A stretch of DNA of 64,000 nt from an uncultured Sphaerobacteraceae bacterium (lineage in GTDB: Bacteria; Chloroflexota; Chloroflexia; Thermomicrobiales; UBA6265), in NCBI GenBank assembly GCA_964526965.1, contig CAZGML010000005.1:8973-72972 (forward strand), read 5' to 3'. Every line of letters begins with the position of its first letter. The first letter of the stretch is position 1. Of the stretch, positions 1,764-39,277 are shown piece after piece. The translations under genes were made by a program, and so were the position numbers. Under the pieces are notes generated by a model that saw only the letters and a program-made list of their open reading frames with translations, ran no database searches and was not told where the DNA came from.

Positions 1764-2033
1764 ATGGCGATGCCAGTAGAACAGAAGAAAGATATCATCG
1801 AGAGTGCGAAGGTACATGAGAACGATACTGGTTCCCCAGAGGTCCAGATCGCGATCCTGACCGAGCGCATCCTCGAACTCACCGACCACCTTCGCACCCA
1901 CAAGCAGGATAATCACTCCCGCCGTGGCCTGCTGAAGCTGGTTGGCAAGCGCCGCAAGATGCTGGCGTACCTGCAGAAGACCGATATCGAACGATACCGC
2001 GAAACAGTCGCCCGCCACGGCCTGCGCAAGTAG
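1764..2033 (+). CDS. rpsO: 30S ribosomal protein S15
   Basis: The 89-aa product contains [48 protein letters not shown]. An AAGGAG RBS lies upstream. Confidence 0.97.
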
Positions 2034-2112
2034 GCTCGATGGGATTGACCTGCACACGCGAACACATTGCGTACGACCGATTTAATGAGTCGGAATCGCT
2101 CGCATGAACGAG

Positions 2113-2149
2113 AGCCCGGGGCGCATGTCCTGGGCTTTTGTGTGCTTTG
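2113..2149 (+). terminator. Rho-independent terminator after rpsO
   Basis: The stem AGCCCGG...CCTGGGCT has one bulge and is followed by TTTTGTGTGCTTT. Confidence 0.55.
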
Positions 2150-2222
2150 AAAGGAGGCAAACAGACTAACGTGAGCGCCGGCGGGGCCGGGAGGTATTGG
2201 AGCGAGTCGATCATCCACGTAT

Positions 2223-2277
2223 CGTAGTGGCGATGCTTCGTCATCGCCCAGGGCGGACACAGAGGTCCGCCACTACG
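2223..2277 (+). repeat. Structured palindromic module, copy 1 (outer stem plus two hairpins)
   Basis: CGTAGT-GGCGATG-cttcgt-CATCGCC-cag-GGCGGAC-acagag-GTCCGCC-ACTACG. Confidence 0.85.
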
Positions 2278-2329
2278 AATGCAAACGGTTTGGCAGCACC
2301 TGTGAAGGCCGCATCGATCATCGATGTAT

Positions 2330-2384
2330 CGTAGAGGCGATGCTACGTCATCGCCCAGGGCGGACACAGAGGTCCGCCACTACG
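2330..2384 (+). repeat. Structured palindromic module, copy 2
   Basis: CGTAGA-GGCGATG-ctacgt-CATCGCC-cag-GGCGGAC-acagag-GTCCGCC-ACTACG. Confidence 0.85.
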
Positions 2385-2509
2385 AATGCAAATGGTGTGG
2401 CAGCACCTGTGAAGGTCGCATCGCTCCAGTTCCTCTGGTCTCCAGCAGGCAAAAACAAACATCAACGCTCCGCGCGGAAAGGCCGCGTGGTTTATTCATG
2501 GAGACGTGA

Positions 2510-4798
2510 ATGTCACTACCCCAAGACGTAGAACAGCAAATCAAAGTGGTCAGCACCGAAATCGCTGGTCGCACACTTACCCTGGAAACCGGCCGTATTG
2601 CCGGACTCTCCGATGGTGCCGTCACCGTTCGCTACGGCGATACTATGGTGCTCACCTCGGCAATTGGCGAGCGCGAAGCCAAGGAAGATATGGGCTTCTT
2701 CCCGCTTACCGTCGATTATGAGGAAAGAATGTACTCCGCCGGTAAAATCCCTGGCGGTTTCCCCAAGCGAGAAGGCCGACCCACCGAGGCCGCCGTTCTT
2801 GCTGCACGCCTGACCGACCGCCCCATTCGCCCACTGTTCCCACGTGGATACAAGGCCGAAGTGCAGGTGATCACCACCGTGCTCAGCGCCGACCAGGAGA
2901 ACGATGCCGACATCCTCTCCATTATCGGTGCATCCGCCGGCCTCACCATCGGCCCAGTGCCCTTTGAGGGTCCCGTTGGTGCCGTCCGCATCGGCATGAA
3001 AGATGGCGAGTTCATCATCAACCCCACCTTCGACGAGCGCGATGAAGGCGACCTCGACATGGTGGTGGCCGGTACCGACGACGCCATCATGATGGTTGAG
3101 GGCGAGGCCAAGGAAATCGAAGAAGAGAAGATGGTGCAGGGCATCGAGAAGGCGCATGAAGTCATCCGCCAGATCGTTGCGCTGCAGCACGAGCTCCGCT
3201 CAATGGCTGGCATGGAGAAGTGGCCGTTCGAGAGCCCCGCACGCAACGAAGAACTCTTCGCCGCGGTTGAGGGTGTTATCGGCGATCGCCTCCGCGAAGC
3301 CGTTCGCAACGCAGATAAGGTCGTGCGACTCGAAGCCACCAGCGAACTCCAGGCCGAGGCTCTGGCCCAACTCACCGAAGGCGACGAGGCCCAGTTCACC
3401 GCCGCCGAGGTTAATGAGACCTACGAGGCACTGCTGAAGGACGAAGTTCGCCGCGGAATCCTGGAGGAGGGCATCCGACCGGATGGCCGCTCGCCCGAGG
3501 AAATCCGCCCAATCTGGACCCAGGTCGGCTACCTGCCACGCACCCACGGCTCCGCGCTCTTTACACGCGGCCAGACCCAGGCGCTCACAGTTGCAGCGCT
3601 CGGAAGCATGGCCGAAGAACAGCGGCTGGATTCTATCTCCCCGGCTACCAGCAAGCGCTATATCCATCACTACAACTTCCCGCCCTACAGCGTGGGTGAA
3701 GTCCGCCGTATGCGAGGCGCAAGCCGCCGCGATATCGGCCACGGAGCCCTCGCCGAGCGCGCGTTGATCAACGTGATCCCGCCGGAAGATGAGTTCCCGT
3801 ACACCATTCGCGTCGTGTCGGACATCATGAGCTCCAACGGCTCGTCCTCCATGGCGTCTGTGTGTGGATCCACCATGGCGCTTATGGATGCTGGTATACC
3901 GATCTCCAAGCCGGTTGCCGGTGTGGCCATGGGCCTCATTACCGATGGCAGCGGTGATAACTACACCGTGCTCTCGGATATCCAGGGCATGGAAGACGCC
4001 CTCGGCGATATGGACTTCAAGGTCGCCGGTACGCCCGATGGCGTCACCGCGATCCAGATGGACATCAAGGTCAAGGGCATTTCCTTCGATATCATGCGCC
4101 AGGCACTCAGCCAGGCACTTGTCGGTCGCAAGCACATCCTCGACAAGATGGCCGAAACCATCTCAGAGCCGCGCGCAGAACTGAACAAGTACGCACCGCA
4201 GGTCGTTTCCATCAAGATCGACCAGGCCAAGATCGGCAAGGTCATCGGACCGGGTGGCGCCATGATCCGCGAGATTCAGGAAGAGACCGATTCCAAGATC
4301 AACATCGAGGACGATGGCACCATCTCGATTGCTTCCAGCGATAGCGAAGGCATCGCAAAGGCCAAGGCCAAGATCCAGGAGCTGACGGAAGATATTCCGG
4401 AAGTGAAGGTCGAGCGTGGCGAGATCTACAACGGCAAGGTCGTGAGCATCATGCCGTACGGTGCGTTCGTTGAAATCGCACCAGGCCGGGATGGCCTCGT
4501 GCACATCTCCGAGCTGAGCGAAGATCCAACCATCCGCACCGAGCGCGTGGAAGATGTTGTCAACATGGGTGAGGAAATCACCGTCATGGTGATCGACGTC
4601 GCCCCGAACGGCAAGGTCAGCCTCAGCCGACGTGCTGCACTCACCGGCGAACTGCCAGAGCCCAAGCCACAGCGCCCACGTGGCGGTGGCGGCGGTGGGT
4701 TCCGTGGCGACCGTGGTGGTCGTCGTGACGACCGAGGCCCGCGCGATCGAGGACCACGTGACCGTGGCCCCCGGGATCGCGGCCCACGCGACAACTAA
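2510..4798 (+). CDS. pnp: Polyribonucleotide nucleotidyltransferase (PNPase) with an Arg/Gly-rich C-terminal tail
   Basis: The 762-aa product has FPLTVDYEERMYSAGKIPGGFPKREGRP, a KH motif GKVIGPGGAMIREIQEETD and an S1 motif GKVVSIMPYGAFVEIAPGRDGLVHISEL. The tail reads GGGGGGFRGDRGGRRDDRGPRDRGPRDRGPRDRGPRDN. Confidence 0.97.
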   Translation: MSLPQDVEQQIKVVSTEIAGRTLTLETGRIAGLSDGAVTVRYGDTMVLTSAIGEREAKEDMGFFPLTVDYEERMYSAGKIPGGFPKREGRPTEAAVLAARLTDRPIRPLFPRGYKAEVQVITTVLSADQENDADILSIIGASAGLTIGPVPFEGPVGAVRIGMKDGEFIINPTFDERDEGDLDMVVAGTDDAIMMVEGEAKEIEEEKMVQGIEKAHEVIRQIVALQHELRSMAGMEKWPFESPARNEELFAAVEGVIGDRLREAVRNADKVVRLEATSELQAEALAQLTEGDEAQFTAAEVNETYEALLKDEVRRGILEEGIRPDGRSPEEIRPIWTQVGYLPRTHGSALFTRGQTQALTVAALGSMAEEQRLDSISPATSKRYIHHYNFPPYSVGEVRRMRGASRRDIGHGALAERALINVIPPEDEFPYTIRVVSDIMSSNGSSSMASVCGSTMALMDAGIPISKPVAGVAMGLITDGSGDNYTVLSDIQGMEDALGDMDFKVAGTPDGVTAIQMDIKVKGISFDIMRQALSQALVGRKHILDKMAETISEPRAELNKYAPQVVSIKIDQAKIGKVIGPGGAMIREIQEETDSKINIEDDGTISIASSDSEGIAKAKAKIQELTEDIPEVKVERGEIYNGKVVSIMPYGAFVEIAPGRDGLVHISELSEDPTIRTERVEDVVNMGEEITVMVIDVAPNGKVSLSRRAALTGELPEPKPQRPRGGGGGGFRGDRGGRRDDRGPRDRGPRDRGPRDRGPRDN

Positions 4799-4820
4799 GC
4801 CTGTTTGGTGACGGACGTAG

Positions 4821-4848
4821 GCCCGGGGTTTATCCCCGGGCTTCTCCG
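4821..4848 (+). terminator. Rho-independent terminator after pnp
   Basis: GCCCGGGG-tttat-CCCCGGGC is followed by TTCTCCGT. Confidence 0.6.
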
Positions 4849-4867
4849 TATGTATGGGGTACTGTGA

Positions 4868-5146
4868 ATGACAAATCGGGATCAGATCTTCGCTGACATC
4901 TCCACCGAACGCGACGCACAAGACGCGAAGTTCGGTAACCAGGTCCACTCCATGCCGGTCTGGAGCGCCGTCCTCACAGAGGAGTGCGGTGAGGTGGCCG
5001 AGGCCGCCCTAAGGGTTGTGTTCCACGGCGAACATGACCATCTCGCCCACCTGCGTGAGGAACTGGTTCAGGTCGCTGCCGTGGCCGTGCACATCATCGA
5101 GAAGATCGATAGCGATAACTGGACCCGCGGTGAGGGTTCCCGGTAG
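4868..5146 (+). CDS. Small MazG-like / DUF550-like putative nucleotide pyrophosphohydrolase-fold protein
   Basis: The 92-aa product carries ERDAQDAKFG and W..VLTEECGEVAEA, patterns I associate with MazG-type all-alpha NTP-PPase domains. Confidence 0.45.
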   Translation: MTNRDQIFADISTERDAQDAKFGNQVHSMPVWSAVLTEECGEVAEAALRVVFHGEHDHLAHLREELVQVAAVAVHIIEKIDSDNWTRGEGSR

Positions 5147-5160
5147 TATCGACCTTCGCA

Positions 5161-5219
5161 CGTAGTGGCGATGCTGTGTCATCGCCTGGCCGGGGCGCAC
5201 ACATAGGTGCGCCACTACG
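5161..5219. repeat. Structured palindromic module, copy 3, between convergent genes
   Basis: CGTAGT-GGCGATG-ctgtgt-CATCGCC-tggccgg-GGCGCAC-acatag-GTGCGCC-ACTACG. It overlaps the stop codon (5215-5217) of the minus-strand gene. Confidence 0.85.
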
Positions 5220-5739
5220 GCAACGGAGTCGCGTTATCCTCCGCCCGCTGGGTGGCTTCCAGGGTTTCAGCTGCCTGTGTGGCGATACCCTCAAACCACT
5301 CGGTACCCGATTCCGTACCGAGTACCCAAAACATGAACACACAGCAGGCTATCACCACCAGCGCGATCAAACCCAGCAGAACCCACAGCCATGTGCGACG
5401 CGGACGTCCCCGCGGCGGGCCGAGATCAGACATCGCCCATTCGTCCTGGCTGCTGCTGCGGAGCCGTTCGCGTTCGATCTCCCAATCCGGCTTGCGGTCA
5501 GCAAAACCACCGTCACCGGTATAGGGCTCATTGCCGGGTGGCGGAGGAGGGGCAGCCGATTCCTCGCGCGTTTCCTCGCCGCCAGTGGAGTAGCCGCCCC
5601 AGTCCCGATCCGAATCCAGCGGACTCTTTCCTCGGGGAGCGCTCGTACTTGATGCCCCGGAATCATCAACCGGGGCACCACAGTTAGGGCAGAAATTTGC
5701 GTCGGGGGCGAGCTCGTGCCCGCAATTAGAACAATACAT
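5215..5739 (-). CDS. Zinc-ribbon membrane protein (N-terminal CxxC..CxxC, disordered linker, one TM)
   Basis: The product begins MYCSNCGHELAPDANFCPNCGAPV. It also has a Pro/Gly-rich linker and the TM segment TWLWVLLGLIALVVIACCVFMFWVL. Confidence 0.6.
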   Translation of the reverse strand: MYCSNCGHELAPDANFCPNCGAPVDDSGASSTSAPRGKSPLDSDRDWGGYSTGGEETREESAAPPPPPGNEPYTGDGGFADRKPDWEIERERLRSSSQDEWAMSDLGPPRGRPRRTWLWVLLGLIALVVIACCVFMFWVLGTESGTEWFEGIATQAAETLEATQRAEDNATPLP

Positions 5740-6756: not shown

Positions 6757-7737
6757 CTAGTCGAGTCGAACGCGTGGGTCAAGCACGCCGTAGAGGATGT
6801 CTGCCAGCAGGTTCCCGAAGACAGTGAGCACAGCGTAGAACATTACACACGCCATAGCCACTGAATAGTCGCTTTGGCTCAGGCTATTAACCGTTACCTG
6901 ACCCATTCCGCGGTACCCAAACACGTTTTCAACAATGAGGGATCCGCCGAAGATATCCGGCACACTCAGGCCAATCAGCGTCACCAGCGGGAGCATGGCG
7001 TTCTTCAACGCATGCGTCATCACCACGGAGCGATACTTCATGCCCTTTGAGGAAGCTGTGCGGATGTAATCCTGGTTAATGGTCTCCAGCATCTGGGCGC
7101 GCACGTAGCGGGTCCAGGCGGCCATACTGCCTACCGTAAGCGCCGCCACCGGCATGATCAGATATTGTATACGATCCAGAACCCAATCGATACCCGTGTG
7201 GTCAGCACGCAAGTCATACGTACCGGCCACTGGCAAACTTGGCAGACCCCAATTCTGGAACTGAACACCGAAGATGATGATCATCATCATTCCGAGCCAC
7301 AGCACCGGCGTGGAGTAGAAGAGTGTTGCCAGAATGGTGGTAATGCGGTCGAAGAAGGAGTTGCGTCGGATAGCGCCCAGGATACCGATCGGAATGGCAA
7401 ACGCAGCAGCCAAAAGAATGGAAGGAATACTTAAGGCAAGAGTATTTGGAATTGCGGAGCCGATAACGCGGGTAACTGGCTGGGCATTGAGGAAGCTAAA
7501 TCCGAGGTCGCCTTGCAGGGCGTTACCGAGCCAGCGGAAATACCGTACATACCATGGGTCATTAAGACCGAGATTTTCACGAATACGCTCAATATCTGCC
7601 GGTGTAATGCTTGGGTTGAACTCAATTTGCGATGTGGGGCTGCCCGGAACCATATTCATCAGGGCGAACACAAGGAAAGAAATCCCTAGCAAAAGAGGCA
7701 CAAGACCCAATAGCCGGCGAACAATATACCGCGTCAT
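6757..7737 (-). CDS. ABC transporter permease, peptide/nickel type (DppB/OppB-like)
   Basis: The 326-aa product begins MTRYIVRRLLGLVPLLLGISFLVFALM and contains DYIRTASSKGMKYRSVVMTHALKNAMLP. Confidence 0.88.
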   Translation of the reverse strand: MTRYIVRRLLGLVPLLLGISFLVFALMNMVPGSPTSQIEFNPSITPADIERIRENLGLNDPWYVRYFRWLGNALQGDLGFSFLNAQPVTRVIGSAIPNTLALSIPSILLAAAFAIPIGILGAIRRNSFFDRITTILATLFYSTPVLWLGMMMIIIFGVQFQNWGLPSLPVAGTYDLRADHTGIDWVLDRIQYLIMPVAALTVGSMAAWTRYVRAQMLETINQDYIRTASSKGMKYRSVVMTHALKNAMLPLVTLIGLSVPDIFGGSLIVENVFGYRGMGQVTVNSLSQSDYSVAMACVMFYAVLTVFGNLLADILYGVLDPRVRLD

Positions 7738-7888: not shown

Positions 7889-9682
7889 TTATGCATCAAC
7901 CCAGGCGCGGTTCAGCCACCAGAAGGCGCTGTAGCCGTTCGGGAAGAAGTTGTGAACTCGTGGGCTTGCACCCATGATGTTCTGGCGGAATACGTTGATT
8001 CCGATGGCAGCGTCGTCATTGACGATATTCGACATTTCCTGAAGAATCTCAATGCGAGCTTCCTGGTCAACTTCGGTCTTGGATGGCTCAATGAGCGCAT
8101 CGTAGTCCGGGTTGCTGTAGCGCATGCTGTTGAAGCCGTTCGGCGGAGTGGATTCGGTGGCGAACATGGCGTCCTGGCCACCATCGATGCTCCACTGGAA
8201 GCCCTGAACACACACGCCGTAGTTACCGGCATCGGTGTCATCAAGCAGGGTCTGGAACGGCACGGCCGAGGTGATCGCCTCGATACCAACTTCGCTCCAT
8301 GCGTCCTGCATGTACGGGATCTGCACCGGGTACGTGGTTGTACCTTCGGAGTACATCACGTCCATGGTCAGCTTCTGGCCATCCTTCTCGCGGATACCAT
8401 CGCCATCTTCGTCGACCCAGCCAGCTTCCTCGAGGAGGGACATGGCCATTTCCGGATCGTAGTTGTAGATGGTGTTGACGCTGCTCGGATCGTACGCAAT
8501 CGAGAGAACCGGCTGCGTACCATCGGCCTGGATGGCGTAACCGAAGTACACCATGTCGGCGAGCAGGGTGCGGTCGAGTGCGTAAAGCATGGCCTGGCGC
8601 ACGCGAACATCTGTGTAGAGTTCGGTCTTGGTCTCGTCCTGGTTGCAGTGGTAGTAGTTCATGCTCGTGGTGTCATATGCCACGATCTGCAGTTCAGGGT
8701 TGGACTCGGCAATTACGTCGGCGCTGTCGAAGCCGATACCACCGATGTCGGATCCACCAGACTGCAGGGATGCAATCACGGTGTTGCCGTCGGCAACAAC
8801 CTGGTAGATGAAGCGATCGATGTTCGGCACCTGGTCCGGCTGCCAGTAATCTTCGTTCTTCACGAGGGAAACGGTCTCGCCGAGGTTCCACTCTTCGAAC
8901 TTGAATGGGCCGGTGCCCACAACGCGGGACGGATCGGTTCCGGTGGAACCACCATCGCTCGGCCAGTCAGCCGGGTCAACATCAGCCCAGATGTGTGCCG
9001 GCAGAATGCCGAACTGACCAAGGGCCTCAGTCAGGAAGATACCGGACGGAGCCTTGGCGTAGAACTTGACGGTGTAGTCGTCAACGGCTTCGTAGCTGTC
9101 GAGAACGCTCTCAACGGTGACCTTGCGGACACTCTGGCTGTTCTCGGCGAGGGCACCGTCGAATGTGGCGATCACGTCTTCAGAGGTGAAGGGCTCGCCG
9201 TCGTGCCAAACGATGTTTTCGTTCAGGTAGATGGTGTACTCAAGGCCATCGGCGCTGATTTCCCAGCCATCGGCGAGGCCGGTGGGGATATCAGTGCCGT
9301 CAACAACCGAGCCACCAATGAGGGTCTCGAAAACCTGGTTCCAGATGTAGCTGGAGTAGACGTCCGTCGAGAGCACCGGGTTAAGCGTACCGATGTCGGT
9401 GCTTTCCTGGTAAATGATCTCGCCGCCCATGTTTTCGGGCTCTTCGAAATCAAATGCTTCTTCGATGGTGGCCATGGCCTCTTCGCGGGTCATGGTGTTG
9501 GTAATAACTTCGCCACCGCCAGATGGGCTTGCCTCTGGCGTCTGCGCGGCTGCCGAGCGTGCCAGCATACCTGCTGCACCGGCGCTTACGCCAAGAGCAG
9601 TTGCGCGGCGCATAAAGCCTCGGCGACTTACTTTGCCTTCGCGGAGCTGATCCACAAGGGCATTGATCTCCAACTTGTTCAT
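7889..9682 (-). CDS. ABC transporter substrate-binding protein, family 5 (peptide/nickel), with a Tat-type signal
   Basis: The 597-aa product has the twin-arginine motif SRRGFMRRATALGVSAGAAGMLARSAAA. Its size and composition are typical of OppA/DppA-like proteins. Confidence 0.85.
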   Translation of the reverse strand: MNKLEINALVDQLREGKVSRRGFMRRATALGVSAGAAGMLARSAAAQTPEASPSGGGEVITNTMTREEAMATIEEAFDFEEPENMGGEIIYQESTDIGTLNPVLSTDVYSSYIWNQVFETLIGGSVVDGTDIPTGLADGWEISADGLEYTIYLNENIVWHDGEPFTSEDVIATFDGALAENSQSVRKVTVESVLDSYEAVDDYTVKFYAKAPSGIFLTEALGQFGILPAHIWADVDPADWPSDGGSTGTDPSRVVGTGPFKFEEWNLGETVSLVKNEDYWQPDQVPNIDRFIYQVVADGNTVIASLQSGGSDIGGIGFDSADVIAESNPELQIVAYDTTSMNYYHCNQDETKTELYTDVRVRQAMLYALDRTLLADMVYFGYAIQADGTQPVLSIAYDPSSVNTIYNYDPEMAMSLLEEAGWVDEDGDGIREKDGQKLTMDVMYSEGTTTYPVQIPYMQDAWSEVGIEAITSAVPFQTLLDDTDAGNYGVCVQGFQWSIDGGQDAMFATESTPPNGFNSMRYSNPDYDALIEPSKTEVDQEARIEILQEMSNIVNDDAAIGINVFRQNIMGASPRVHNFFPNGYSAFWWLNRAWVDA

Positions 9683-11783: not shown

Positions 11784-12757
11784 CCGACGATAACGAGAAG
11801 GCCCCACACAGCATTAGTGTGAACGCCATTACGCATACGCCAGACCGCGTTTGGTACCAGCTATCCGTAGACGTGGACAACGAGGCCGTTGAAGCCGTGA
11901 CCGAGCTCTTTGGTCGCTATGGATTCAACAACGGTGTCGCTATCGACGAGCCCTACGTGCAGGACCAGGATGGCGATAACCTCGGCATCGATCTGGAAAA
12001 GCCGTTCACCATCCATACTTACATCCCCGATGAGGATTTCGATCCGGCGATCATCGAGGAGTTGCGTCAGGCCCTGTATTACCTTGGTCAGTTGCGTGGA
12101 ATCAGCGATGTTCGCGTGACCAATCTGCAGGAGCAGGATTGGGCCAACGCCTGGAAGGAACACTTCCAGGTGCATCGCATCGGCGAGCGCGTGGTGATTC
12201 GTCCGCCCTGGCGCGAGTTCGAGCCCGAAGGTGACGACATCGAAGTAATCCTCGACCCTGGTATGGCGTTCGGAACCGGTCTTCACCCCAGCACGCGTCT
12301 GAGCATGCTTGGTACAGAAGAGGTGGTGAAACCCGGCGATACCGTGCTCGATGTTGGTACCGGTAGCGGCATCCTCGCCTTCGCCGCTGCCAAACTCGGC
12401 GCAGAGAAGGTGGATACCGTCGACGTCGAGACAGTCGCGGTAAAAGCCACCGCCGAAAATGCCGAGCTCAACGATTTGTCAGACAAAATCACGGTTGAAC
12501 TTGGTAGCGTGGGGGAGGGCCAGCCGTTCTGGGGCGAGCAGTACGATGTCGTGCTTGCGAACATCATCTCCCGCATTCTCATCGAACTCTGCGAGCCAAT
12601 CGTGGCGCACGCCAAACCCGGCGGAAAGATCGTGCTCGCCGGCATCATCGAATCTCGCGAACAGGATGTGATCGACGCGTTCGAACAAGCCGGTGCCCGG
12701 GTAACCAACCGTCGCTTCGCGGAGGATTGGGTCAGCCTCGTTCTCACCAGGGATTAA
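11780..12757 (+). CDS. prmA: Ribosomal protein L11 methyltransferase
   Basis: The product contains GMAFGTGLHPSTRLSM and VLDVGTGSGILAFAAAKLGA. The GTGA start overlaps the upstream stop. Confidence 0.88.
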   Translation: MTDDNEKAPHSISVNAITHTPDRVWYQLSVDVDNEAVEAVTELFGRYGFNNGVAIDEPYVQDQDGDNLGIDLEKPFTIHTYIPDEDFDPAIIEELRQALYYLGQLRGISDVRVTNLQEQDWANAWKEHFQVHRIGERVVIRPPWREFEPEGDDIEVILDPGMAFGTGLHPSTRLSMLGTEEVVKPGDTVLDVGTGSGILAFAAAKLGAEKVDTVDVETVAVKATAENAELNDLSDKITVELGSVGEGQPFWGEQYDVVLANIISRILIELCEPIVAHAKPGGKIVLAGIIESREQDVIDAFEQAGARVTNRRFAEDWVSLVLTRD

Positions 12758-38512: not shown

Positions 38513-39277
38513 CTATGAGTTCTGATCGTCGGTAACGATCTCACCTTGATGAACCTGACTCTCAGCGGATGAGCCGAGATCAGTCGTAGTGGCATCCTCT
38601 CCAGATTCGAGATAGCCGCTGTGGCCGCTCTTGAGCGCCTCAAGTTCCTTCTCGATATCGATGTCGTAATCGAGCTCGCGGAACTGTTCATCGTAGGAGT
38701 CTGACTGCATTTCGCCGATCGCAAGGGCTTCAGCCTCGGTCGCGCGGATACGGCGCTCCATGCGTTCCAGTTCATCGCTGGCATCCAGGGGCGTTAGCGA
38801 GACGTTGCTCGCCATCTGCGAAACCTGCTTGGTGGCCTGCGCACGCTTCTGGCGGGCAATCATGGAATCACGCTGGCTCAGTGTTTGCTGGTACTTGCTC
38901 TCCAGCTGGCGAAGTTGGTCCTTCAGGCGAGAGACAGTCTGAACCTGGATTTCATGCTGCTTGGCGTAAACAGCTGCATTTTCGTCCTGGTCGCGTTTGC
39001 GGCGCAGTGCCTCGCGTGCGAGGTCATCCTTGCCGGCGTCTACAGCGCGTTTGGCCTTGGCAGCCCACTCGGTGGCAAGCTGTTTGGTCTCGTCGAGGTC
39101 GGCTTCCAACTCTTTCTCTTGCGCAATCATTGATGCGACTTGAGAACGAGCGGTGCGAATGTTGGAATCCATATCCCGAAGGATCTGGTCGATCATCTTT
39201 TCAGGATCTTCTGCGCGATCCAGTACATCGTTGATATTGGCTCGAATCAGTCGGGACATGCGATCTAAAATACCCAT
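38513..39277 (-). CDS. pspA: PspA/IM30-family phage-shock protein A
   Basis: The product begins MGILDRMSRLIRANINDVLDRAEDPEKMIDQILRDM and has a long coiled-coil. Confidence 0.9.
   Translation of the reverse strand: MGILDRMSRLIRANINDVLDRAEDPEKMIDQILRDMDSNIRTARSQVASMIAQEKELEADLDETKQLATEWAAKAKRAVDAGKDDLAREALRRKRDQDENAAVYAKQHEIQVQTVSRLKDQLRQLESKYQQTLSQRDSMIARQKRAQATKQVSQMASNVSLTPLDASDELERMERRIRATEAEALAIGEMQSDSYDEQFRELDYDIDIEKELEALKSGHSGYLESGEDATTTDLGSSAESQVHQGEIVTDDQNS

Follow-up and report, generated by a model that had tools for sequence, protein, structure and literature searches.

What kind of element lies between two convergent genes at positions 5161–5219 of the 64-kb stretch of DNA analysed here (the window), and on what level are its stems preserved? 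The original prediction had described the site as a further occurrence of a palindromic module from the pnp leader, in which a paired base exchange in one hairpin reflected compensatory evolution under selection for the fold. Using either half of the module as pattern and allowing three mismatches, we found three copies in total in the 64-kb window (2223–2277, 2330–2384 and 5161–5219), so that the sequence between the convergent genes is indeed the third copy. Dinucleotide-preserving shuffles (n = 100) yielded no match to the half-patterns, and a chance match as the origin of the module was thus ruled out. The two sister copies, to which no strand was assigned, reside in the leader between rpsO (1764–2033) and pnp (2510–4798); the first (2223–2277) combines units with the stems GGCGATG and GGCGGAC, and the second (2330–2384) lies inside a 107-bp tandem duplication (2207–2423). 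Genes for opp permeases are also present in the window, and the nearest named relatives of the PNPase are encoded in Thermomicrobiales MAGs. The same element is carried by short Logan contigs of the source species.

The third copy reads CGTAGT GGCGATG-ctgtgt-CATCGCC tggccgg GGCGCAC-acatag-GTGCGCC ACTACG, and each half of the module represents a 25-nt unit in which GTAG and one further base are followed by a 7-bp stem without mismatches that encloses a 6-nt loop. The left unit (5162–5186, plus strand) consists of GTAG (5162–5165), T (5166), GGCGATG (5167–5173), CTGTGT (5174–5179) and CATCGCC (5180–5186). The right unit (5194–5218) has to be read on the minus strand as GTAG-T-GGCGCAC-CTATGT-GTGCGCC, its tag being the reverse complement of 5215–5218. 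Between the two lies the spacer TGGCCGG (5187–5193), which comprises 7 nt as compared to 3 nt (CAG) in the leader copies. The predicted identity of outer stem and hairpin A with the leader copies applied fully to the hairpin A stem, but the outer stem of copy 2 (CGTAGA) deviates by one mismatch. In terms of units, this ‘outer stem’ CGTAGT/ACTACG corresponds to the two GTAG tags, each with one base per side, pairing with each other. GTAG was located one base ahead of the stem in all six units of this type in the window and was one of the 4-mers with the highest enrichment ahead of perfect hairpins in the 64 kb. The loops, each read on its own strand (CTTCGT, CTACGT, CTGTGT, CTCTGT and CTATGT), followed the pattern CTnnGT in six of six window units. 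Contrary to the notion that loop A differs freely, the loops are constrained. Differences between left and right units were confined to the inner 3 bp of the stem (ATG/CAT, GAC/GTC, CAC/GTG) and to the two central loop bases. A covariance model (R1) recognized both halves of copy 3, scoring 38.5 bits for the left unit (E = 2.4e-6) and 42.1 bits for the right unit (E = 4e-7); two weak matches of a covariance model at 38586 and 53612, both inside coding sequence, were judged to be chance.

As DNA, the REP-type units of the window were predicted to fold with –7.1 to –8.5 kcal/mol (z = –4 to –5), the left unit of copy 3 accounting for –7.1 kcal/mol and z = –5.0. The inner 3 bp are not the same in the two arms, so that one long hairpin faces competition from two separate ones. 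Predicted RNA folds of copy 3 reached –38.3 and –34.9 kcal/mol for the two strands. On the minus strand the RNA took a Y shape, which was also preferred by both DNA strands, so that the two-hairpin fold put forward originally holds in these cases; for plus-strand RNA, the MFE structure was instead an extended rod. Taking pattern search, covariance model and folds together, we assign 5161–5219, without strand, very probably to an HH heterodimer, that is, two GTAG-tagged REP units with their tags pointing outward, similar to REPINs and BIMEs. The HH arrangement is shared by all three copies of the window, and the comparison with REP elements that had been drawn from the sequence at the outset proved apt, the element being a REP dimer by this assignment.

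GTAG REPs have been described in Chloroflexi including Thermomicrobium roseum, where they are clustered at few loci, and a family termed GTAG-23 occurs in T. roseum and Roseiflexus castenholzii (Di Nocera, De Gregorio & Rocco 2013, PMC3733652). The same study reports HH dimers and heterodimers, as well as sub-families in which stem residues are exchanged for other complementary ones. Where REPs occur between convergent genes, the majority are <20 bp away from each of the two ORF ends, and the TAG stop is often supplied by a GTAG terminus (PMC3733652). Like the GTAG REPs of PMC3733652, the window element has a stem within 6–9 bp that is flanked on one side by an unpaired GTAG tag; HH dimers with tags outside, heterodimers and complementary-stem sub-families are likewise common to both. 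Further common traits are that the 3′ ends of convergent ORFs lie <20 bp away and that the tag lends its TAG as a stop codon, that copies are clustered, and that dimers are reiterated in tandem with their flanking DNA. The window element differs from these REPs (PMC3733652) in the 6-nt loop CTnnGT, as opposed to 2–3 nt in many families, and in the host, an uncultured species. All features noted from the sequence at the outset have been described for GTAG REPs (PMC3733652), including the spacer of variable length, the complementary variants of the stem, the overlap with a stop codon, the location between convergent genes and the tandem reiteration; we therefore consider the element to be of a known kind, found in an uncultured host. 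T. roseum belongs to the order Thermomicrobiales, as does the window host; the likeness to GTAG-23 concerns host order and description, and a mere hint in the same direction comes from a RAYT on metagenome contig L111 (see below), whose closest published counterpart is rca_2775 of R. castenholzii.

E. coli BIMEs (Y and Z REPs) likewise combine two REP types in inverted orientation with a GTAG tag. E. coli REPs are, however, imperfect palindromes with a bulge, whereas the stems found here are perfect over 7 bp and thus ‘group 3’-like; BIMEs also differ in that the window spacer amounts to only 3–7 nt and is devoid of IHF or L motifs, and in that the cognate enzyme is known in E. coli while the REPs of the window are not accompanied by a RAYT within 64 kb. 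In the REPINs of Pseudomonas fluorescens SBW25 (Bertels & Rainey 2011, PMC3116915; PMC3337134), two inverted REPs also form the copied unit, which is non-autonomous and RAYT-associated, and singletons are read as remnants. The SBW25 REPINs have near-identical arms and a longer spacer and form one long hairpin, unlike the window dimer, whose arms are dissimilar over the inner 3 bp and in which rod and Y shape compete. The REPs of Stenotrophomonas maltophilia (SMAG; group 3 REPtron Sm) are perfect palindromes with a short loop as well, and their requirements, namely an obligatory GTAG, a specific loop base and a stem that has to pair but is flexible in sequence (PMC8266576), match the conservation pattern of the window. 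The differences are an 8-bp stem and a 3-nt loop, as compared to 7 bp and 6 nt here, and a host from another phylum.

To look beyond the window, we scanned metagenomes with the pattern GTAGTGGCGNNNCTNNGTNNNCGCC, which prescribes tag, loop ends and outer 4 bp and leaves the inner three stem pairs free. At least 120 loci of the REP family were obtained. Among the 123 matches listed, the inner three pairs were fully Watson–Crick in 62, compared to 1 in 64 expected by chance, and the complementary inner triplets fell into 12 types, of which CAC/GTG was the commonest among the matches listed. Flanking sequences of the metagenome matches ranged from AT-rich through GC-rich. An inverted partner ending in CTAC was present within 130 nt of 17 of the 62 well-formed metagenome units among the matches listed, and single REP halves also occurred alone as singletons. 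Judged by sequence, the family consensus is GTAG-T-GGCG-nnn-CTnnGT-n′n′n′-CGCC, and the family is widespread. One REP design, GTAG-T-GGCG..CTnnGT..CGCC, hence recurs across many unrelated metagenomic backgrounds. A scan of a genome collection for CGTAGTGGCG-N28-58-CGCCACTACG returned mostly other GTAG-tagged doublets from many phyla, and a literature search for the literal strings GTAGTGGCG and CGCCACTAC retrieved primer lists only.

Over a larger set of copies, covariation was strong. In a formal count over 72 distinct sequences, 87.5% of cells were paired as compared to 77.4% in shuffles, and the covariation score of 0.256 (0.096 in shuffles) was reached by none of 500 shuffles; slid controls scored 0.03–0.10. 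In a lineage set of 13 units, drawn both from the window and from related species and skewed towards pairing because its units were chosen as hairpins, 97.8% of cells were paired, both-sided changes occurred in six of seven pairs, and no single-sided (G–U) state was observed. The sequences thus support the view that stem pairing rather than stem sequence is conserved, both across the family and within the lineage. The paired G-to-C and C-to-G change in hairpin B that keeps the pairing is plainly seen in the sequence of copy 3; its reading as compensatory evolution at this locus had to be abandoned. The right unit of copy 3, the 25-mer GTAGTGGCGCACCTATGTGTGCGCC, had exact matches in the unrelated metagenome contigs L081 and L181, where the GGCGCAC/GTGCGCC unit occurs letter for letter, and a local compensatory double mutation was therefore rejected. 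The left unit also recurs identically, in the pnp leader of the related species L075. As the right unit recurs in identical form and CAC/GTG is the commonest type listed, copy 3 is a heterodimer that joins two sequence types already in existence. The ‘compensatory change’ is thus ordinary variation between sub-families of a mobile palindrome and not the mark of a new structured RNA.

TnpA-REP/RAYT binds the folded single-stranded REP, and perfect-palindrome REPs need GTAG for cleavage (PMC8266576); in these REPs one base of the loop is specific as well, and the stem is flexible in sequence, but cleavage suffers when it contains mismatches (PMC8266576). The E. coli TnpA-REP (RAYT, YafM) is likewise a Y1 HuH enzyme acting on a folded single strand (PMC8266576, PMC3479197). 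Within the 64-kb window, no RAYT was detected, neither by phmmer with YafM and IS608 sequences nor with 14 published RAYT/TIRYT query sequences taken from the supplement of PMC3733652. A 435-aa ORF, the sole match in the window to a HuH..Y..NP regular expression, was not taken as a transposase. Three observations run against a reading as REP: only six units of the type are present in the window, accompanied by one GTAG hairpin of another type and all within 3 kb of pnp; there is no RAYT within the 64-kb window; and the heterodimer has a very short spacer, unlike a classical REPIN.

In the metagenomes, ORFs adjoining scan matches were found to match Pfam PF01797 (Y1_Tnp) on contigs L111 (2668–3181, minus strand) and L108 (3768–4319, plus strand). 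The L108 ORF matched a Pseudomonas RAYT (1e-24), and the L111 ORF was closest, among the published RAYTs compared, to rca_2775 (7e-15); a truncated copy of the L108-type RAYT was present on L079. Two inverted REPs stand on either side of the L111 RAYT gene, GGCCGAC-acatag-GTCGGCC-A-CTAC and GGCGGAC-acatag-GTACCGCC-T-CTAC on the left, and GTAG-T-GGCGGAC-ctgcgt-GTCCGCC and GTAG-T-GGCCGAC-ctgcgt-GTCGGCC on the right. These flanks have the stem GGCGGAC/GTCCGCC in common with hairpin B of the window and the loop ACATAG with copy 3. The L108 RAYT gene is flanked by REPs in the same manner, inverted on both sides. These REPs are hence associated with RAYT genes at the level of the family. According to the mechanism known from the literature, the units would be non-autonomous and would be copied by a RAYT (TnpA-REP), an IS200-like HuH Y1 transposase that would recognize the folded single-stranded DNA hairpin plus the GTAG tag. 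Recognition of hairpin and tag would explain why GTAG and loop ends are fixed and why any change on one side of the stem is matched on the other. The RAYT link, the lack of G–U pairs in the lineage set, the invariance of GTAG and the conservation of the loop ends all fit recognition of a folded single-stranded DNA hairpin (PMC8266576). Of the claim that selection acts on the fold and not on the primary sequence, the covariation of pairing thus stands, but an RNA fold is not required, and most simply the constraint is that of a DNA hairpin recognized by a transposase.

Mobility was also apparent from the orthologous sites. We compared the syntenic loci of seven related species, whose PNPase is 84–89% identical. 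Their pnp leader contains a conserved long hairpin, GGAGGYATTGGAGCGA...TCGCTCCAGTTCCTCTGG, with a predicted stability of –46 to –48 kcal/mol. The apical loop of this hairpin carries no insertion in L074, L077, L198, L199 and L200. In the window it contains two dimers in tandem, as a 107-bp duplication; L072 has a single decayed dimer there, with a GTTG head and a mismatched stem, and L075/L076 have a trimer that includes a GGAGGAC/GTCCTCC variant. In the predicted fold of the window leader, the conserved stem still closes around the insertions. The gap that corresponds to copy 3 was different in each of the relatives compared. A classical terminator of A-tract, hairpin and T-tract occurs alone in L077, L075, L198 and L199, whereas L200 has such a terminator together with a related HH dimer, the GTAG tag of which provides the TAG stop of the other convergent gene, a 92-aa reading frame. 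A different, GTAA/GTAG-tagged doublet occupies the gap in L074, and in L072 a third GTAG type forms a cluster of 500 bp, while in the window the REP dimer is the sole structure in 68 bp. REP units thus come and go at orthologous sites.

These data bear on the idea that the module is a dedicated, non-mobile structured RNA under selection at the RNA level, such as a module by which PNPase or RNase III would recognize the pnp leader and a second transcript. Two copies within the conserved leader hairpin, covarying stems and stable predicted RNA folds would agree with such a role. The leaders of L074, L077, L198, L199 and L200 (five of eight related species), however, do without the module even though their leader hairpin is conserved, the same units turn up in many unrelated contexts and also beside RAYT genes, the element is symmetric on both strands, and G–U pairs are absent from the lineage set. 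Rfam 15 gave no covariance-model match at the gathering threshold for the 64-kb window, and nothing relevant for 2000–5300 with a permissive E of up to 10. With the empty orthologous sites, a dedicated regulatory RNA is largely refuted, and we consider it very improbable. The 10-bp termini of the element, CGTAGTGGCG and CGCCACTACG, are perfect inverted repeats, and together with the shortness of the element and its insertion polymorphism they could suggest a MITE moved by a DDE transposase. The termini, however, include the REP tag GTAG, each half forms a hairpin by itself and is also encountered as a singleton, and the associated gene encodes a Y1 HuH transposase. Target-site duplications were inconsistent (GCA/GCA at copy 3, TAT/AAT at copies 1–2, AAT/GAA in L075), and the GCA flanks of copy 3 were treated as chance since they are absent at the other copies. 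Lacking a consistent duplication, the DDE-type MITE is the least credible of the readings weighed here, with hardly any probability left to it. The most satisfactory explanation overall, and a likely one, is a GTAG-REP heterodimer mobilized by a RAYT, with a possible role at mRNA 3′ ends.

Both ORFs that had been predicted to flank copy 3 are real genes, conserved in syntenic relatives. The 92-aa ORF (4868–5146, plus strand) is without Pfam match but 74–83% identical in the syntenic relatives, and converges on the element with its stop 14 nt upstream. From the other side, a gene for a Zn-ribbon membrane protein of 174 aa (5215–5739, minus strand), with orthologues in five relatives, runs towards it, the gap between the two convergent genes amounting to 68 bp. 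The overlap with a minus-strand stop codon was confirmed in that the TAG stop of the Zn-ribbon gene (5215–5217, CTA on the plus strand) is located inside the element and coincides with the last three bases of the right unit's tag, while the first G of the tag is the last base of the final proline codon, CCG. The protein ends in ..ATPxP at the same residue in five of five orthologues, followed by CCG-TAG in L072 and otherwise CCG-TAA. In the window, CCG-TAG-T-GGCG can accordingly be read as C-GTAG-T-stem: the dimer directly abuts the last Zn-ribbon codon, so that the tag equals the native Pro-stop sequence and the protein remains unaltered. The hairpin starts 1 nt past the stop codon and, given this proximity, might slow translation termination of the Zn-ribbon mRNA, which is speculative.

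What the dimer does for its host is a separate matter. A search of 4700–5400 for terminator-like sites on both strands was negative, with no U-tract, and a plain intrinsic terminator was rejected for want of a U-tract behind the hairpin. The dimer sits where relatives have a classical bidirectional intrinsic terminator, and the transcripts of both convergent genes would end in, or pass through, a very stable structure. In E. coli, BIMEs have roles as mRNA 3′ stabilizers and attenuators; the REPs of this organism reportedly stabilize upstream mRNA and are said, in more than one account, to act as 3′-end barriers or attenuators, and REPs close to stop codons have reportedly been connected with trans-translation. 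By analogy, the dimer could act as a barrier to 3′–5′ exonucleases or as a weak attenuator. The loss of the ancestral intrinsic terminator at this site makes a 3′-end role plausible, and we tentatively give it slightly less than an even chance. REP insertions may, on the other hand, be neutral passengers. If so, the same REP dimer would have no host role and the 3′ ends of the genes would be set by Rho or by read-through decay. The missing U-tract on either strand points that way, as do the fast turnover of the site among relatives, which have other REP types or none, and the decay of the L072 leader copy with its GTTG head and stem mismatches. Less in keeping with mere passage are the absence of the intrinsic terminator of five relatives, which leaves the dimer as the only structure in the 68-bp gap, the very stable folds predicted for both transcripts, and the reported capacity of E. 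coli REPs to stabilize upstream mRNA. A neutral passenger therefore appears a serious possibility, somewhat less probable than not. A more far-reaching proposal would be that in this lineage REP dimers have replaced the ancestral terminator as the sole 3′ structure of both mRNAs, that Zn-ribbon termination is coupled to the REP structure because the stop codon lies at the hairpin foot, and that REPs are grouped around pnp, in its leader loop, at its 3′ end and in the next gap, in a non-random manner because PNPase is the exonuclease obstructed by REP hairpins. Taken jointly, these assumptions are unlikely to hold.

Beyond the single locus, the element adds REP/RAYT-type repeats for an uncultured Thermomicrobiales lineage and provides a natural comparison set, in which sister species fill the same gap with a terminator, this dimer or REP dimers of other kinds, and the loop of the pnp leader hairpin either carries REP insertions or lacks them. 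With mapped transcript ends, this set could test whether REP dimers stand in for terminators. A single hairpin of the other GTAG-tagged type, GTAG GCCCGGGG tttat CCCCGGGC, was located at 4817–4841 on the plus strand, 19 nt past the pnp stop, and its orthologues in L200, L072 and L077 carry the heads GTTG, GTAC and GTAG, respectively.

The rpsO-pnp leader folds into a long hairpin, GGAGGYATTGGAGCGA...TCGCTCCAGTTCCTCTGG, with a free energy of about -46 to -48 kcal/mol, which is kept in eight related species. The region lies at window 2170-2470 and, in relatives syntenic around pnp, at L074 9729-10000, L077 334-608, L198 3017-3298, L199 1078-1359 and L200 99-375. This conserved hairpin is presumably the pnp autoregulatory stem. 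Wherever the leader carries REP dimers (window, L072, L075), all of them are located in the apical loop of this hairpin, and the stem remains unbroken. The two leader dimers of the window form a 107-bp tandem duplication (window 2207-2423, 93% matches) that takes in approximately 50 bp of non-REP flank. This is the arrangement known from clustered REPs, whose dimers are described as reiterated in tandem along with flanking DNA.

At the other end of pnp, 19 nt past its stop codon, a single GTAG-tagged hairpin of another type was observed (window 4817-4841, GCCCGGGG-tttat-CCCCGGGC). Its orthologues carry the heads GTTG (L200), GTAC (L072) and GTAG (L077), and the element may either belong to a second REP family or be the 3' hairpin of pnp. 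Within the coding sequence of pnp itself, at its 3' end, there is a 30-nt tandem repeat of 2.1 copies with 79% matches (window 4729-4792).

Further REP types were found in the gaps of related species. Doublets of a second family, which begin with GTAG or degenerate forms of this tag and have stems ACCCGGAC/GTCCGGGT with longer internal hairpins, occur in the pnp-downstream gaps at L074 12284-12410 and 12690-12798, L198 5588-5745, L199 3643-3779 and L076 4810-4920. The corresponding gap of L075 is not comparable, as a run of N (scaffold gap, 12285-12383) lies immediately 3' of pnp. In L072, a 500-bp gap (7975-8492) that is a terminator site in other species is occupied by GTAGGGGTGGAC-type units and a long hairpin with a GTAG head, GTAGCACCGGAATGCCGAAGGCGG...CTTATTCCGGTG, which is present three times. 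Additional dimers of inverted units with outward GTAG tags were detected at L075 21262-21316 and L076 ~4960-5020, with stems GGGGCAG/CTGCCCC and GGGGGAG/CTCCCCC and loops of 5 nt. Since these stems differ, several REP sub-families coexist in one relative.

Copy 3, the dimer between the convergent 92-aa ORF and the Zn-ribbon gene, is bordered by the trinucleotide GCA on either side (window 5158-5160 and 5220-5222). The other copies lack such flanks, and the GCA repeat is therefore probably due to chance and not a target-site duplication. The Zn-ribbon gene was called short in two relatives (L198 6016-6630, 122 aa; L199 4050-4655, 70 aa). In both, however, the N-terminal Zn-ribbon region is still encoded in the DNA, which suggests frameshifts or assembly errors.

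Among the metagenome loci, the minus strand of L166 (~7540-7660) harbours REP-like units, GTAGTGGCGGACCTCAGTCTCCGCC, in a head-to-tail tandem array with spacers of 12-13 nt, a period of ~37-38 nt and one mismatch in the stem of every unit. A conserved stretch of ~80 nt, CTGTTTGATGGC-GTAGTGGCGGCTCTCTGTCCCCGCC-TTCGAAGGAGAGATTTCCATCGAATTCTGCAAGCAAC, recurs across ten loci (L092, L093, L097, L104, L119, L121, L173, L174, L190 and L195), whose sequences diverge downstream of it. The stretch resembles the terminus of a larger mobile element that includes a poorly paired REP-like motif. Finally, a REP heterodimer with shared flanks was seen in many almost identical copies in the single metagenome SDBT01... 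(L100, L110, L115, L127, L129, L149, L152, L158, L164, L189 and L197). Each copy consists of a GGCGCAC unit, a 25-nt spacer and a GACAGAC-acatag-GTCTGTC unit. Either the dimer is high-copy and embedded in a repeat of greater length, or a single locus was assembled many times.
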